The position numbers were made by a program, and so were the translations under genes. Of a stretch of DNA of 64,000 nt, positions 10,103-63,462 are shown piece by piece. A model generated the notes under the pieces. The model was given only the letters and a program-made list of their open reading frames with translations. It was not told the DNA's origin and did not search any database. Numbering within the stretch: position 1 is the first letter of the stretch; each line of letters begins with the position of its first letter. The stretch is from the NCBI RefSeq assembly GCF_044647545.1, contig NZ_CP172818.1, one strand, 5' to 3'. This DNA is from Escherichia coli (GTDB lineage: Bacteria; Pseudomonadota; Gammaproteobacteria; Enterobacterales; Enterobacteriaceae).

Positions 10103-12034
10103 ATGAGTTATCAGGTCTTAGCCCGAAAATGGCGCCCACAAACCTTTGCTGACGTCGTCGGCCAGGAACATGTGCTGACCGCACTGGCGAACGGCTTGTC
10201 GTTAGGGCGTATTCATCATGCTTATCTTTTTTCCGGTACCCGTGGCGTCGGAAAAACCTCTATCGCCCGACTGCTGGCGAAGGGGCTAAACTGCGAAACC
10301 GGCATTACCGCGACGCCGTGCGGCGTGTGCGATAACTGTCGTGAAATCGAGCAGGGGCGCTTTGTCGATCTGATTGAAATCGACGCCGCCTCGCGTACCA
10401 AAGTCGAAGATACCCGCGACCTGCTGGATAACGTCCAGTACGCTCCGGCGCGTGGTCGTTTCAAAGTTTATCTCATCGACGAAGTGCATATGCTGTCGCG
10501 TCACAGCTTTAACGCACTGTTAAAAACCCTTGAAGAGCCGCCAGAGCACGTTAAGTTTTTGCTGGCGACGACCGATCCACAGAAATTGCCGGTGACGATT
10601 TTGTCACGCTGTTTGCAATTTCATCTCAAGGCGCTGGATGTCGAGCAAATTCGCCATCAGCTTGAGCACATCCTCAACGAAGAACATATCGCTCACGAGC
10701 CGCGGGCGTTGCAATTACTGGCGCGCGCCGCTGAAGGCAGCCTGCGAGATGCCTTAAGTCTGACCGACCAGGCGATTGCCAGCGGTGACGGCCAGGTTTC
10801 AACCCAGGCGGTCAGTGCGATGCTGGGTACGCTTGACGACGATCAGGCGCTGTCGCTGGTTGAAGCGATGGTCGAGGCCAACGGCGAGCGCGTAATGGCG
10901 CTGATTAATGAAGCCGCTGCCCGTGGTATCGAGTGGGAAGCGTTGCTGGTGGAAATGCTCGGCCTGTTGCATCGTATTGCGATGGTACAACTTTCGCCTG
11001 CTGCACTTGGCAACGACATGGCCGCCATCGAGCTGCGGATGCGTGAACTGGCGCGCACCATACCGCCGACGGATATTCAGCTTTACTATCAGACGCTGTT
11101 GATTGGTCGCAAAGAATTACCGTATGCGCCGGACCGCCGTATGGGCGTTGAGATGACGCTTCTGCGCGCGCTGGCGTTCCATCCACGTATGCCGCTGCCT
11201 GAGCCAGAAGTGCCACGCCAGTCCTTTGCGCCCGTCGCGCCAACGGCAGTAATGACGCCAACCCAGGTGCCGCCGCAACCGCAATCAGCGCCGCAGCAGG
11301 CACCGACTGTACCGCTCCCGGAAACCACCAGCCAGGTGCTGGCGGCGCGCAAGCAGTTGCAGCGCGTGCAGGGAGCAACCAAAGCAAAAAAGAGTGAACC
11401 GGCAGCCGCTACCCGCGCGCGGCCGGTGAATAACGCTGCGCTGGAAAGACTGGCTTCGGTCACCGATCGCGTTCAGGCGCGCCCGGTGCCATCGGCGCTG
11501 GAAAAAGCGCCAGCCAAAAAAGAAGCGTATCGCTGGAAGGCGACCACTCCAGTGATGCAGCAAAAAGAAGTGGTCGCCACGCCGAAGGCGCTGAAAAAAG
11601 CGCTGGAACATGAAAAAACGCCGGAACTGGCGGCGAAGCTGGCGGCAGAAGCCATTGAGCGCGACCCGTGGGCGGCTCAGGTGAGTCAACTTTCGCTACC
11701 AAAACTGGTCGAACAGGTGGCGTTAAATGCCTGGAAAGAGGAGAGCGACAACGCAGTATGTCTGCATTTGCGCTCCTCTCAGCGGCATTTGAACAACCGC
11801 GGCGCACAGCAAAAACTGGCTGAAGCGTTGAGCACGTTAAAAGGTTCAACGGTTGAACTGACTATCGTTGAAGATGATAATCCCGCGGTGCGTACGCCGC
11901 TGGAATGGCGTCAGGCGATATACGAAGAAAAACTTGCGCAGGCGCGCGAGTCCATTATTGCGGATAATAATATTCAGACCCTGCGTCGATTCTTCGATGC
12001 GGAGCTGGATGAAGAAAGTATCCGCCCCATTTGA
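10103..12034 (+). CDS. dnaX: DNA polymerase III subunits tau (full length) and gamma (via -1 frameshift)
   Basis: 643-aa ORF MSYQVLARKWRPQTFADVVGQEHVL with Walker A GTRGVGKTS; recognised as DnaX. Confidence 0.97.
   Translation: MSYQVLARKWRPQTFADVVGQEHVLTALANGLSLGRIHHAYLFSGTRGVGKTSIARLLAKGLNCETGITATPCGVCDNCREIEQGRFVDLIEIDAASRTKVEDTRDLLDNVQYAPARGRFKVYLIDEVHMLSRHSFNALLKTLEEPPEHVKFLLATTDPQKLPVTILSRCLQFHLKALDVEQIRHQLEHILNEEHIAHEPRALQLLARAAEGSLRDALSLTDQAIASGDGQVSTQAVSAMLGTLDDDQALSLVEAMVEANGERVMALINEAAARGIEWEALLVEMLGLLHRIAMVQLSPAALGNDMAAIELRMRELARTIPPTDIQLYYQTLLIGRKELPYAPDRRMGVEMTLLRALAFHPRMPLPEPEVPRQSFAPVAPTAVMTPTQVPPQPQSAPQQAPTVPLPETTSQVLAARKQLQRVQGATKAKKSEPAAATRARPVNNAALERLASVTDRVQARPVPSALEKAPAKKEAYRWKATTPVMQQKEVVATPKALKKALEHEKTPELAAKLAAEAIERDPWAAQVSQLSLPKLVEQVALNAWKEESDNAVCLHLRSSQRHLNNRGAQQKLAEALSTLKGSTVELTIVEDDNPAVRTPLEWRQAIYEEKLAQARESIIADNNIQTLRRFFDAELDEESIRPI
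11386..11397 (+). other. dnaX: dnaX programmed -1 ribosomal frameshift site (A AAA AAG heptamer, then -1 frame GAG TGA ending gamma)
   Basis: Heptamer AAAAAAG at 11386..11392 in the correct phase (codons AAA AAG at 11387..11392), -1 frame stop TGA at 11395..11397, and a GC-rich hairpin CCGGCAGCC...GCGCGCGGCCGG starting about 6 nt downstream. Confidence 0.9.
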
Positions 12035-19351: not shown

Positions 19352-19396
19352 GGCATCCGTAGGCCGGATAAGATGCGTCAGCATCGCATCCGGCAA
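19352..19396. repeat. REP (repetitive extragenic palindrome) element between gsk and ybaL
   Basis: GGCATCCGTAGGCCGGATAAGATGCGTCAGCATCGCATCCGGCAATG with the characteristic GCCGGATG...CATCCGGC dyad. Confidence 0.7.
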
Positions 19397-19409
19397 TGGA
19401 ATCAATGTT

Positions 19410-21086
19410 TTACCCCGTCACCACCTCACCCGCCGGTGGCGTTTCCAGCAGTTCCAGCATAGTACGGGCAATTTCACGCTCACCCATCACTACCTGATTC
19501 GCACCACGTTCGGTGATATACGCCACTTCATCGTCATAATGGGCGCGGGCAATAATCTCAATATCCGGATTTTTCGCGCGGGCAGATGCCACAATCTCGC
19601 CCGCTTCATAACCGTTGGGAATCGTCAGGATCAGCCATTTTGCACATTCCAGATGCGCCAGTTGCATAATTTCTTCGTTCGCCGCATTGCCCAATACTGC
19701 GCGGACCCCGCGCTCTCGCAGTTCATCAACACGGGTTCGTGACGTCTCAATCACCACCAGCGGAATATCAGAGGCGAGCAATTTCTCCCCCAGCAGGCTG
19801 CCTACACGACCGTAACCTACCAGTAGCGCATGGTTGCAAATATCCACTGGGATCTGCTTCTCTTCTTCGATAGCCTCTTCCAGCGTCTGCTCTTCCAGCG
19901 TTTCGGTCTTCGCCAGATATTTCTCCAGCAGCGCAAACAGGACCGGGTTGAGCATAATCGACAAAATCGCCCCTGCCAGTACCAGGTTCTGCCCGGCTTG
20001 CGGCAATAGATCCAGCGCCATGCCCAGTCCCGCCAGGATAAACGCGAACTCACCAATTTGCGCCAGGCTGGCGGCGATAGTTAATGCCGTACGTTGGGAG
20101 TGACCAAACAGTCGCACCAGGAAAAACGCGGCTAACGACTTACCAAACAGAATAATCGCCAGCGTCGCCAGCACTGCCAGCGGTTGCTGAATCAGAATTA
20201 ACGGATCAAACAACATCCCGACGGAGACAAAAAACAGCACCGCAAACGCGTCGCGCAATGGCAGCGTATCGTGGGCGGCACGGTGACTCAGTTCAGACTC
20301 GTTCAGTACCATCCCGGCAAAGAACGCACCGAGTGCAAAGGAGACATCAAACAGCTCCACCGCACCAAAGGCAATCCCTAACGCCAGCGCCAGCACCGAC
20401 AGGGTAAACAGCTCGCGGGAACCGGTTGCTGCGCTACGTGCCATAATCCACGGCACCAGACGGCGACCTACCAGCATCATAATGGCGATAAATGCGATCA
20501 CCTTGCCGATGGTGATCCCCATATCGACAGCAAGAGTGGCAAAGCCCACATCGCCTTGTTCCATCATTCCTGCCACTGCGGGCAGCAACACCAGCGTCAG
20601 AACCATGACCAGGTCTTCCACAATCAACCAACCGATGGCGATTTGCCCACGCTGACTGTCAATTAATTGCCGTTCTTCAAGTGCGCGCAGTAACACCACG
20701 GTACTGGCGGTGGAAAGGCATAAGCCGAACACGATACCGGTCATTAACGACCAGCCCAGCACGGCGGAGAGCGCCATACCCAGCAGCGTAGCCACGGCTA
20801 TCTGGGCGATCGCGCCGGGAATGGCGATGGCCTTTACCGCCATCAAATCCTTGAGCGAAAAGTGCAAACCGACGCCAAACATCAACAGAATGACGCCCAG
20901 TTCAGCCAGTTCCGGCGCAAGCTTGGTATCGGCAACAAAGCCCGGAGTGAATGGTCCTGCCAGCACACCCGCTAACAGATATCCCACCAGAGGAGAAATA
21001 CGTAGTTTATTGGCCAGCATGCCGAGGATAAAGGCGAGCACAAGGCCGCCAACAATGGTGGTGATAAGCGGGGTGGCGTGATGCAT
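19410..21086 (-). CDS. ybaL: CPA2-family cation/proton antiporter YbaL (KefB-like, C-terminal TrkA-N domain)
   Basis: 558-aa polytopic membrane ORF with C-terminal Rossmann GYGRVG motif. Confidence 0.94.
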   Translation of the reverse strand: MHHATPLITTIVGGLVLAFILGMLANKLRISPLVGYLLAGVLAGPFTPGFVADTKLAPELAELGVILLMFGVGLHFSLKDLMAVKAIAIPGAIAQIAVATLLGMALSAVLGWSLMTGIVFGLCLSTASTVVLLRALEERQLIDSQRGQIAIGWLIVEDLVMVLTLVLLPAVAGMMEQGDVGFATLAVDMGITIGKVIAFIAIMMLVGRRLVPWIMARSAATGSRELFTLSVLALALGIAFGAVELFDVSFALGAFFAGMVLNESELSHRAAHDTLPLRDAFAVLFFVSVGMLFDPLILIQQPLAVLATLAIILFGKSLAAFFLVRLFGHSQRTALTIAASLAQIGEFAFILAGLGMALDLLPQAGQNLVLAGAILSIMLNPVLFALLEKYLAKTETLEEQTLEEAIEEEKQIPVDICNHALLVGYGRVGSLLGEKLLASDIPLVVIETSRTRVDELRERGVRAVLGNAANEEIMQLAHLECAKWLILTIPNGYEAGEIVASARAKNPDIEIIARAHYDDEVAYITERGANQVVMGEREIARTMLELLETPPAGEVVTG

Positions 21087-25051: not shown

Positions 25052-25135
25052 ACACCGTCGCTTAAAGTGACGGCATAATAATAAAAAAATGAAATTCCTC
25101 TTTGACGGGCCAATAGCGATATTGGCCATTTTTTT
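25052..25135 (+). ncRNA. chiX: Hfq-dependent sRNA ChiX (MicM/SroB/RybC)
   Basis: ACACCGTCGCTTAAAGTGACGGCATAATAATAAAAAAATGAAATTCCTCTTTGACGGGCCAATAGCGATATTGGCCATTTTTTT recognised as ChiX; ends in hairpin GGCCAAT/ATTGGCC plus T-run; located between ybaK and ybaP as in K-12. Confidence 0.85.
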
Positions 25136-53976: not shown

Positions 53977-54021
53977 CTATTACCTTTAAAGCGGATGCGA
54001 TTTATATCGCATATTGACTAC

Positions 54022-54048
54022 AAAAAAAGCCACGGAATAAACCGTGGC
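54022..54048 (-). terminator. Rho-independent terminator of allE (minus strand)
   Basis: Minus-strand GCCACGG-TTTATT-CCGTGGC followed by TTTTTTT, about 40 nt after the allE stop. Confidence 0.75.
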
Positions 54049-54090
54049 AAAATCCAACATAGCTAAAAATAATCAGGCGAGTGGTATGAC

Positions 54091-60456: not shown

Positions 60457-61272
60457 ATGACGATCATCCATCCTCTGCTTGCCAGCCGTAGCGCACCGAA
60501 TTATCGCCAGTCCTGGCGGTTAGCGGGCGTGTGGCGGCGGGCGATTAACCTGATGACGGAAAGCGGCGAACTGTTAACGCTGCATCGTCAGGGTAGTGGT
60601 TTCGGCCCCGGAGGATGGGTGCTTCGCCGCGCGCAATTCGATGCGTTATGCGGTGGATTATGCGGCAATGAACGACCACAGGTTGTGGTTCAAGGGATTC
60701 GCCTCGGGCGTTTCACGGTTAAACAGCCACAGCGTTATTGTTTGCTGCGTATTACGCCGCCTGCGCATCCTCAACCGCTTGCAGCGGCATGGATGCAACG
60801 CGCGGAGGAAACCGGGCTTTTCGGGCCGCTGGCGTTGGCGGCAAGCGATCCGCTGCCTGCTGAATTACGCCAGTTTCGTCACTGTTTTCAGGCCGCGCTC
60901 AATGGCGTTAAGACCGACTGGCGGCACTGGCTGGGTAAAGGCCCCGGATTAACGCCAAGTCATGATGACACGCTGAGCGGAATGCTGCTGGCGGCCTGGT
61001 ATTATGGCGCTTTAGATGCGCGCTCCGGTCGCCCGTTTTTTGCCTGTTCCGACAATCTTCAACTCGTTACCACAGCGGTGAGCGTTAATTATTTACGTTA
61101 TGCCGCGCAAGGATATTTCGCCTCGCCACTCCTGCACTTTGTTCATGCTCTGAGTTGCCCGAAACGTACCGCAGCGGCGATCGATTCGCTGCTGGCGCTG
61201 GGGCATACGTCAGGGGCCGATACGCTGCTGGGGTTCTGGCTTGGCCAACAATTATTACAAGGAAAACCATGA
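60457..61272 (+). CDS. ylbF: DUF2877 protein YlbF
   Basis: 271-aa [51 protein letters not shown]; stop overlaps the ybcF start (ATGA). Confidence 0.9.
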
Positions 61273-62162
61273 AAACACTGGTTGTGGCTCTTGGGGGCAA
61301 CGCCTTACTCCAGCGCGGTGAGGCGCTGACGGCAAAAAATCAATATCGCAATATTGCCAGTGCTGTGCCCGCGCTGGCGCGCCTGGCCCGTTCTTATCGT
61401 CTGGCGATTGTTCACGGCAACGGGCCGCAGGTGGGGCTGCTGGCGTTACAGAATCTGGCGTGGAAAGAGGTAGAACCGTATCCGCTGGATGTACTGGTGG
61501 CGGAAAGCCAGGGGATGATTGGCTATATGCTGGCGCAGAGCTTGAGCGCACAGCCGCAGATGCCGCCTGTCACGACGGTGCTGACGCGCATTGAGGTTTC
61601 GCCTGATGATCCGGCGTTTTTGCAGCCAGAGAAGTTTATTGGTCCGGTTTATCAGCCAGAAGAACAAGAGGCACTGGAAGCGGCTTACGGCTGGCAGATG
61701 AAACGTGATGGTAAATATTTACGCCGGGTGGTGGCGTCTCCGCAACCGCGTAAAATTCTCGACAGCGAAGCCATCGAGTTGTTGCTCAAAGAGGGGCATG
61801 TGGTGATTTGCAGTGGCGGCGGCGGTGTGCCTGTGACGAAAGACGGGGTAGGGAGTGAAGCAGTGATTGATAAAGATCTCGCCGCTGCGTTGCTCGCCGA
61901 GCAGATTAATGCCGATGGACTGGTGATCCTCACCGATGCTGATGCGGTATATGAAAACTGGGGAACGCCGCAGCAACGTGCCATTCGCCATGCCACACCG
62001 GATGAGTTAGCGCCATTTGCCAAAGCCGATGGTTCGATGGGGCCGAAGGTAACGGCGGTGAGTGGCTATGTCAGAAGCCGTGGTAAACCTGCGTGGATTG
62101 GGGCGTTATCGCGGATTGAAGAGACGCTGGCGGGCGAAGCGGGGACCTGTATTTCGCTGTAG
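61269..62162 (+). CDS. ybcF: Carbamate kinase-like protein YbcF (ArcC family)
   Basis: Track ORF 61155..62162 trimmed to ATG at 61269 ([39 protein letters not shown]). Confidence 0.93.
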
Positions 62163-62191
62163 TGATGGGCACCAGGCAATTGGCACATCTA

Positions 62192-62378
62192 GCCTGATGC
62201 GATGCTGGCGCGTCTTATCAGGTCTACAGGCGGTGTCGGAACGGTAGGCCGGATAAGGCGTTCACGCCGCATCCGGCAATCGGCACACCATGCCTGATGC
62301 GATGCTGGCGCATCTTATCAGGCCTACAGTCGGTGTTGGAACGGTAGGCCGGATAAGGCGTTCACGCCGCATGCGGCA
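62192..62378. repeat. BIME: two tandem copies of a REP-pair unit (about 87 bp each, period about 100 bp)
   Basis: Unit 1 at 62192..62278 and unit 2 at 62292..62378, each GCCTGATGCGATGCTGGCGC.TCTTATCAGG.CTACAG.CGGTGT.GGAACGGTAGGCCGGATAAGGCGTTCACGCCGCAT.CGGCA, differing at only a few positions. Confidence 0.85.
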
Positions 62379-62394
62379 AGAAAATGAGCATCAA

Positions 62395-63462
62395 TTAACT
62401 GAACTTGCTCTGCGCCCAAATCACGCCGCTAGCATATTCTGGCGGCAGCAGCGGGATTAAGGCTTCCAGCGTCGCGGTCAGACGCGATGTGTCGCTGTCG
62501 GTCAAATTTAAATGCCCCACTTTACGCCCCGGACGGACTTCTTTGTCGTACCAGTGCAGATGCACCAGCGGCAGTTTCAGCCAGTCATAATTCACATCGC
62601 TACCAATCAGGTTGATCATCACCGACGGACTATTCACCACCGGTTGTGGTAACGGCAGATCGGTAATCGCCCGCAGATGCAGCTCAAACTGGCTGATGCT
62701 GGCACCGTTTTGCGTCCAGTGCCCACTGTTATGCACACGCGGAGCCAGTTCGTTGATCAGCAGACCTTGTGGGGTGACAAAACACTCCATCGCCATCACG
62801 CCCACATAGCCCAGCTCCTGCATAATCGCCGACAGCATCTCTTCGGCCTGCGCCTGCTGCTGCGCGTTGGCCTGCGGGAAAGCGACGCTGGTGCGCAAAA
62901 TACCGTCCTGATGCAGGTTATGCGTCAGCGGATAAAACACGGTACTACCATCAAAGCCGCGCGCGCCAACCAGCGACACTTCACCAGAGAAGTTTATGCC
63001 CTGCTCGACAATACATTCGCCGTAGCATTCAGTCGGTAACTGTTCGGTTTCATCGGCGCGTAAACGCCATTGACCGCGTCCGTCATAGCCACCAGTGCGA
63101 CGCTTAACAATCGCCAGCTCACCTAAACGCTTAAACACCGCAGGCCACTCGCTGCGATCGGCAAGTAACTGCCACGGTGCGGTCGGCAGGTGGAGCTTAT
63201 CGAAAAGCTGCTTCTGAGTCAGACGGTCAGCAATAATCGGGAACACATCGCGGTTCACAAAGGCCGGATGGCGCGCCAGCTCGCGGGTTAATGCGGTTTC
63301 CGGCCAGCGTTCGATCTCAGCGGTAATCACACTTTGTTGAAAAGGCACCGCCGCCGGTTCAGCGTCCAGCCCGACTGGCCAGACAGCAATGCCTAACGGT
63401 TCGCCTGCCTGACGCAGCATACGGCCTAACTGCCCGTTCCCGAGGACGCAAACCTGTTTCAT
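62395..63462 (-). CDS. purK: N5-carboxyaminoimidazole ribonucleotide synthase
   Basis: 355-aa [39 protein letters not shown] (ATP-grasp); start overlaps the purE stop (ATGA). Confidence 0.96.

Follow-up and report, generated by a model that had tools for sequence, protein, structure and literature searches.

A two-unit BIME-2 tandem array between the convergent genes ybcF and purK of Escherichia coli

The ybcF-purK spacer and its repeats

The window analysed here, a 64-kb stretch (64,000 nucleotides) of Escherichia coli DNA, contains near its right-hand end the two convergent genes ybcF and purK and a repeat array that fills their common 3' region. The first of these, ybcF, ends the fdrA-ylbE-ylbF-ybcF run of genes in the allantoin region. 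A 361-bp segment that contains the array is 100% identical to DNA of E. coli FDAARGOS_497, in which PGAP annotates allS, allA, allR, gcl, hyi, glxR, allW, allB, ybbY, glxK, allE, allC, allD, fdrA, ylbE, ylbF and ybcF upstream of the array, and purK and purE, convergent with ybcF, downstream of it. The spacer measures 232 bp from stop codon to stop codon (62163-62394), and the genes and repeat elements, in window coordinates, are as follows:

61269-62162, + strand: ybcF (carbamate kinase), with stop codon TAG at 62160-62162, from the open reading frame list and from PGAP at the corresponding position of NZ_CP033850.1 (100% DNA match)
62169-62191, + strand: left edge of the array, where GCACCAGGCAAT, a degenerate version of the Y REP 3' arm GCATCCGGCAAT, precedes the first head-to-head linker; the repeat register begins at 62169
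62192-62227, + strand ('iREP' orientation): Z2-type REP no. 1, with a CTAC tail at 62224-62227 and 0 mismatches to the Z2 pattern
62228-62243, no strand: tail-to-tail linker of unit 1 (short, S-position), 16 nt, read from the sequence
62244-62278, + strand: Y-type REP no. 1, with GTAG at 62244-62247, an AA/GC stem mismatch and 0 mismatches to the Y pattern (- strand)
62278-62291, no strand: head-to-head linker from unit 1 to unit 2, 14 nt, alignable with that of the naRNA4/REP325 model
62292-62327, + strand: Z2-type REP no. 2, with CTAC at 62324-62327 and 0 mismatches to the Z2 pattern
62328-62343, no strand: tail-to-tail linker of unit 2, 16 nt, with 2 differences from the unit 1 linker
62344-62378, + strand: Y-type REP no. 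2, slightly degenerate, with GTAG at 62344-62347 and 1 mismatch to the Y pattern (- strand)
62395-63462, - strand: purK, with stop codon TAA as the complement of 62395-62397, from the open reading frame list and the annotation of identical DNA

The first Z2 REP begins 29 nt past the ybcF stop codon, and the stem of the last Y REP lies 17 nt from the stop codon of purK.

Tandem Repeats Finder reported a single array at 62175-62379 with a period of 100, 2.0 copies, 91% matches, 0% indels and a score of 347, and a gap-free repeat finder aligned 62169-62268 with 62269-62368 at 90% identity. When the two 100-bp units are compared in register, 91 of 100 positions are identical, the remainder being nine substitutions without any indel, and the 2.0 copies lie head to tail within 62169-62378. 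Each unit is composed of a Z2-type REP, a 16-nt tail-to-tail linker, an inverted Y-type REP and a 14-nt head-to-head linker. A sequence-only reading of this DNA had proposed a tandem REP-pair BIME between ybcF and purK, built from near-identical head-to-tail units with two oppositely oriented palindromes in each, and the repeat finders, the REP patterns and the gene annotation bear this out: the units align to each other, and each of them holds a Z2 REP on the + strand and a Y REP on the - strand. The unit length of about 87 bp given there is that of the REP pair at 62192-62278, but the period is 100, the 14-nt head-to-head linker having been omitted. Similarly, the proposed start at 62192 is that of the first full REP, but the repeated region begins about 23 bp further left. 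Other alleles of the locus carry a better-preserved GCATCCGGCAAT at this left-edge position.

The window was scanned with a Z2 pattern (GCCTGATGCGAYGCTNNCGCRTCTTATCAGGYCTAC) and a Y pattern (GCCGGATGCGGCGTRAACGCCTTATCCGGCCTAC), which we take to be the respective consensus sequences, and the chance level was set by 100 dinucleotide-preserving shuffles of the window, in which the two patterns gave 0 matches. Both patterns were cross-checked independently against REP325 of E. coli K-12, to whose REPs those of the array are near-identical. The expected agreement with the REP consensus was obtained, with 0 mismatches for each of the two Z2 REPs and with 0 and 1 mismatch for the two Y REPs, matched at 62244-62277 and 62344-62377; Y REP no. 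1 also matched at 100% over 35 nt in blastn-short.

Folded singly, all four REPs form bulged hairpins on either strand, with energies between -14.4 and -21.3 kcal/mol. The values are -18.6 (+ strand) and -14.6 (- strand) kcal/mol for Z2 REP no. 1, -20.0 and -20.5 kcal/mol for Z2 REP no. 2, and -20.9 and -21.3 kcal/mol, with an internal bulge, for Y REP no. 1. The hairpin of Y REP no. 2, in which C>G at 62373 breaks one stem pair, is weaker (-16.6 and -14.4 kcal/mol). The inverted REPs are also able to pair with each other through 17-nt arms that are 88% complementary. Folding of the whole region as RNA was significant but mixed on both strands (z = -3.8 and -5.5), local REP hairpins standing against REP-REP pairing, and the single-REP folds were therefore used instead.

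Membership in the BIME-2 family and other identities

REP and BIME elements have been described since the 1980s, and the array is an already known kind of element, the ybcF-purK locus behaving like a textbook case. We regard its identity as a two-unit tandem array of the BIME-2 family as virtually certain. All four elements are imperfect palindromes of 30-40 nt that form a hairpin with an internal mismatch, and all four carry GTAG at the palindrome foot (CTAC on the opposite strand), a tetranucleotide that is included in the definition of a REP (PMC3333891). They are also extragenic and highly repeated, as a 361-bp query with the array matched 5425 of 5426 genomes, at a median of at least 35 places in each. 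In the Gilson/Bachellier nomenclature, as summarised in Ton-Hoang et al. (2012, PMC3333891), BIME-2 elements combine z2 and y REPs with a short linker in multiple tandem copies, the number of which varies among strains, and their linkers vary in length and sequence, whereas BIME-1 elements combine z1 and y REPs in a single copy with a long L linker that often holds an IHF site. In the array, z2 and y REPs with 0-1 mismatch to the patterns are inversely oriented, the linkers are 16 nt and 14 nt long without a long L linker, and the units are tandem copies (2.0 here) whose number differs among strains at this same locus. Alternating Z2 and Y REPs, short linkers, tandem arrangement, extragenic position, strain-variable unit number, the GTAG tetranucleotide and the two-base stem mismatch are all shared with the family, and no substantive difference was found; the allele of the window has two units, and its last Y REP bears the stem-breaking substitution.

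There is further likeness to the REPIN-RAYT systems (Bertels and Rainey, PMC3116915; RayT/TnpA-REP in E. coli), which also have two inverted, mutually pairing REPs. In Pseudomonas, however, REPINs are doublets dispersed as singlets, in contrast to the tandem amplification of BIME-2 elements at a locus in E. coli.

REP325, the BIME-2 of the yjdM-yjdN intergenic region in K-12, has been described as twelve alternating Z2 and Y units (bioRxiv 10.64898/2026.03.23.713779). It shares with the ybcF-purK array the 100-bp period and the order and orientation of the Y and Z2 REPs; the REPs themselves are near-identical but the linkers differ, so that 78-80 positions per unit are identical, and the tail-to-tail linker, of 16 nt here and 17 nt in REP325, is unrelated in sequence. 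REP325 comprises 6 units inside an operon, whereas the array described here has 2 units between convergent genes.

The junction of Y REP, head-to-head linker and Z2 REP at 62247-62324 matches the Rfam family RF02564 ('naRNA4') on the + strand with 83.1 bits against a gathering score of 59.5, extending over all model positions (1-77) without any flagged non-canonical pair, and on the - strand with 59.5 bits, exactly at the gathering score. Taken at face value, this would be the gene of a naRNA4-like nucleoid-associated sRNA, the transcript of 62247-62324 binding HU, bridging cruciform DNA and condensing the chromosome. In the in vitro work of Qian et al. (2015, PMC4550694), DNA was reported to be condensed by HU together with naRNA4 or even with the complement of this RNA, and what mattered was the shape with two hairpins rather than the sequence. 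naRNA4 itself is one Y-linker-Z2 segment of REP325 (PMC4550694), and RF02564 also matches six REP325 junctions (95-111 bits, compared with 83 in the ybcF-purK array), 4 junctions in the five-unit allele of the ybcF-purK locus and 1 in the BIME near phnD. Because the Y-linker-Z2 junctions of every BIME-2 tested are matched, the match marks the repeat family and not a dedicated sRNA gene. In addition, RF02564 has no match in the one-unit or the K-12 alleles of the locus, no promoter-like site lies in or beside the array (the sole one in 61900-62700, at 62591-62619, is weak and lies inside purK), and the + strand would be read from the weakly expressed ybcF. Finally, REP325/naRNA4 gave no measurable nucleoid compaction in a study co-authored by the senior author of the original one (bioRxiv 10.64898/2026.03.23.713779). 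We consider such an sRNA gene very unlikely, and Rfam-based annotation will yield many 'naRNA4 genes' that are simply BIME-2 repeats.

The element had also been called IHF-binding, as would suit a BIME-1-type (RIP/RIB) element that recruits IHF, and some BIMEs in general do bind IHF (PMC3333891; PMC2267715). A BIME-1 (Z1-L-Y with an IHF site) is alike in pairing a Y REP with an inverted second REP, but it has a Z1 partner, a long L linker and a single copy, whereas the ybcF-purK array has Z2 and Y REPs, linkers of 14 and 16 nt and tandem units. The IHF consensus WATCAANNNNTTR has four matches in the window, none of them in the array, and does not occur in 62163-62394. Because the features of a BIME-1 are lacking and the spacer holds no IHF consensus, the IHF-binding claim does not apply here, the IHF site belonging to the long L linker of BIME-1, and we give this identity hardly any credence. 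Searching for Z1 returned only partial matches of 10-14 nt, which fall inside the full-length Z2 and Y matches.

A degenerate CRISPR, a small open reading frame (e.g., 62290-62460 on the + strand, 56 aa) or a classical intrinsic terminator can practically be dismissed, for although the palindromic repeats are regularly spaced and mechanical open reading frames span the array, there are, as the sequence-only reading had argued in rejecting a CRISPR, just two units, the 'spacers' recur and consist of REPs, the family has tens of copies per genome, PGAP places no gene at the array in the identical DNA, and a search of both strands of 61900-62700 for a G+C-rich hairpin followed by a U-run found 0 sites.

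Apart from those of the array, the only full REP in the 64-kb window is a solitary one on the - strand at 19359-19394, which lies 24 nt past the stop codon of gsk and departs from the Z2 pattern at 2 positions, and an exact match to the IHF consensus, AATCAATGTTTTA, lies immediately beside it at 19400-19412. The other Rfam matches of the window that exceed the gathering score are to the DnaX frameshift element (11367-11431, 96.8 bits), the sRNA sroB (25052-25135, 82.1 bits) and STnc480 (54018-54084, 84.1 bits).

Allelic variation and change in unit number

The array does lie at the 3' boundary of the allantoin cluster, as had been stated, but other strains are without it or have it shorter or longer, and it is therefore not a fixed boundary feature. 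A flank-only query, consisting of the 3'-terminal 150 bp of each of ybcF and purK, found a match in 5425 of 5426 complete genomes, and spacer lengths were sampled from 59 full-length rows spread evenly over the ranked list of these 5425 genomes. The architectures given refer to representative alleles only and were read from the order and positions of the REPs:

194 bp, 21 of 59 genomes, the commonest in the sample: Z2, Y fragment, Z2, Y (K-12 MG1655)
136-138 bp, 17 of 59 genomes (about 29%): one Z2+Y unit (e.g., O157:H7)
533 bp, 6 of 59 genomes: five units (ST131 EC958)
152 bp, 4 of 59 genomes: no REP, a different GC-rich repeat
204 bp, 3 of 59 genomes: Z2, Y fragment, Z2, Y
232 bp, 2 of 59 genomes: two units, the allele of the window
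132 bp, 2 of 59 genomes
332 bp, 1 of 59 genomes: three units
119, 126 and 198 bp, 1 of 59 genomes each

A two-unit query returned about 137 records at an identity of at least 99%, which places the two-unit allele in about 2-3% of complete genomes. Unit 1 of the window has exactly the sequence of the first unit in the five-unit allele of EC958, and a difference of 1 base separates unit 2 from the final unit of the three-unit allele. It follows that the edge units are conserved and that internal units are gained or lost in 100-bp steps, which is known behaviour of BIME-2 elements (PMC3333891).

Several other alleles depart from this simple series. That of K-12 MG1655 (194 bp) consists of a Z2 REP, a 13-nt Y REP remnant, a second Z2 REP and a Y REP, and from its sequence it looks like a two-unit array in which the first Y REP has been mostly deleted. 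The 152-bp allele without REPs is complete in 238 of 5426 genomes (about 4%), namely E. coli N63 and 237 others, and holds a GC-rich repeat (…CCCCTCGCCCCTGTGGGGAGAGGGTTAGGGTGAGGGG…) that is dispersed over a median of 16 places per genome. This repeat looks like a member of the BoxC family, a provisional name that draws on its sequence and on the copy number and length given in PMC2267715. In E. coli 19KM1776, with a spacer of 119 bp, the 5' half of a Z2 REP is fused to an unrelated 40-nt palindrome, TTATCCGACCTGGAAATATCACTGTTTCCACAGGTCGGATAA, which is followed by a normal Y REP.

In E. coli SK0189 (NZ_AP046539.1), IS1397 lies directly between gsk and purK, corresponding to the interval from about 19.4 kb to about 62.36 kb of the window. 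Its left junction is the loop of the Z2 REP downstream of gsk and its right junction the loop of the purK-side Y REP, and the strain is without the approximately 43 kb between the two genes, including the whole allantoin cluster. Such a deletion fits a scenario in which two separate BIMEs had each received an IS1397 and the two copies recombined.

Judging from what is known of the family, the number of units would change by slippage or by unequal recombination between the 100-bp direct repeats, possibly aided by the REP-associated transposase RayT. RayT binds the GTAG-bearing, bulged REP and cuts at a neighbouring inverted REP or in the linker (PMC3333891), and binding of RayT (TnpA-REP) was found to need GTAG at the foot as well as the AA/GC mismatch within the stem (Ton-Hoang et al., PMC3333891). 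These two features are present in the Y REPs of the array, which is likely to serve as a RayT substrate. The rayT gene was found in 3575 of 5426 E. coli genomes (two thirds), among them the five-unit strain EC958, and there is no rayT within the 64-kb window.

Possible function at the locus

When transcribed from either side, the REP hairpins may form a barrier to 3'-5' exonucleases, and they may also act as a partial, Rho-assisted terminator, as other members of the family lead one to expect. Either activity would determine where the purEK and ybcF transcripts end and would restrain read-through from one converging gene into the other. Since no intrinsic terminator occurs on either strand, neither transcript has any strong structure at its 3' end other than the REP hairpins. 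Harris et al. (bioRxiv 10.64898/2026.03.23.713779) reported that REP325 terminates transcription partially and in a Rho-dependent manner and that it protects the mRNA upstream of it. The same work placed about 60% of REPs in the spacers of convergent genes, reported that such gene pairs are more highly expressed, and saw no genome-wide difference in mRNA half-life for genes with terminal REPs. In RNA-seq data of K-12, whose allele differs from that of the window, the baseMean is 73 for ybcF and 1170 for purK, and with ybcF about 16-fold below purK, any role at the RNA level would mostly concern purK there. A role in translation termination is not expected, as the REPs are spaced 29 and 17 nt from the stop codons, in comparison with the 16-nt criterion for REPs that act on this process (Liang, Rudd and Deutscher 2015, as cited in PMC12306157).

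As DNA, the Y REPs would be preferred cleavage sites of gyrase, again by extension from the family. Gyrase binding and mRNA stabilisation, both of which the sequence-only reading named, are reported as family properties (PMC6379681; bioRxiv 10.64898/2026.03.23.713779). BIME-2 elements are enriched in sites cleaved by gyrase, which prefers Y REPs but cuts only a subset of these elements (PMC6379681), and a part of the supplementary text of that study makes no mention of ybcF or purK.

We hold the BIME-2 identity, together with this account of copy-number change, RNA barrier and gyrase sites as a whole, to be highly probable. Whether the combined local RNA-barrier and gyrase function matters at the ybcF-purK locus is, on our analysis, an evenly balanced matter. 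Alleles with zero, one and five units exist, as does a strain without the region, which argues that any function of the array is dispensable or only modulatory.

Against this stands the reading of the array as a purely selfish or neutral repeat, which would be kept and resized by RayT and recombination with no selectable effect on ybcF, purK or topology. The extreme allelic diversity of the locus speaks in its favour, including the REP-free alleles that carry another small dispersed repeat, as do the presence of IS1397 at the locus and the lack of a genome-wide half-life effect of terminal REPs (bioRxiv 10.64898/2026.03.23.713779). On the other hand, REPs are strongly biased to the 3' ends of genes and REP325 measurably affects its neighbours (bioRxiv 10.64898/2026.03.23.713779), although the bias is not decisive, because convergent intergenic space is the most permissive for insertions. 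We regard neutrality as a real possibility, albeit not the one that we favour, and its difference from the functional BIME-2 account is one of degree and not of kind.

It can further be speculated that the number of units (0, 1, 2, 3 or 5) acts as a heritable and quickly mutable dial on mRNA survival and read-through or on gyrase recruitment between the converging transcription units. We think this improbable; if it were true, purEK and allantoin-operon mRNA would be affected, and the alleles would be functionally different rather than neutral.

As a well-known kind of element that is common at such a locus, the array is of small value as a discovery. What is gained is a clean annotation of the ybcF-purK spacer as a BIME-2, and not a BIME-1, without an IHF site. 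The spacer is also a hot spot of repeat turnover, and its alleles, from 0 to 5 units, form a natural series for testing REPs between convergent genes.
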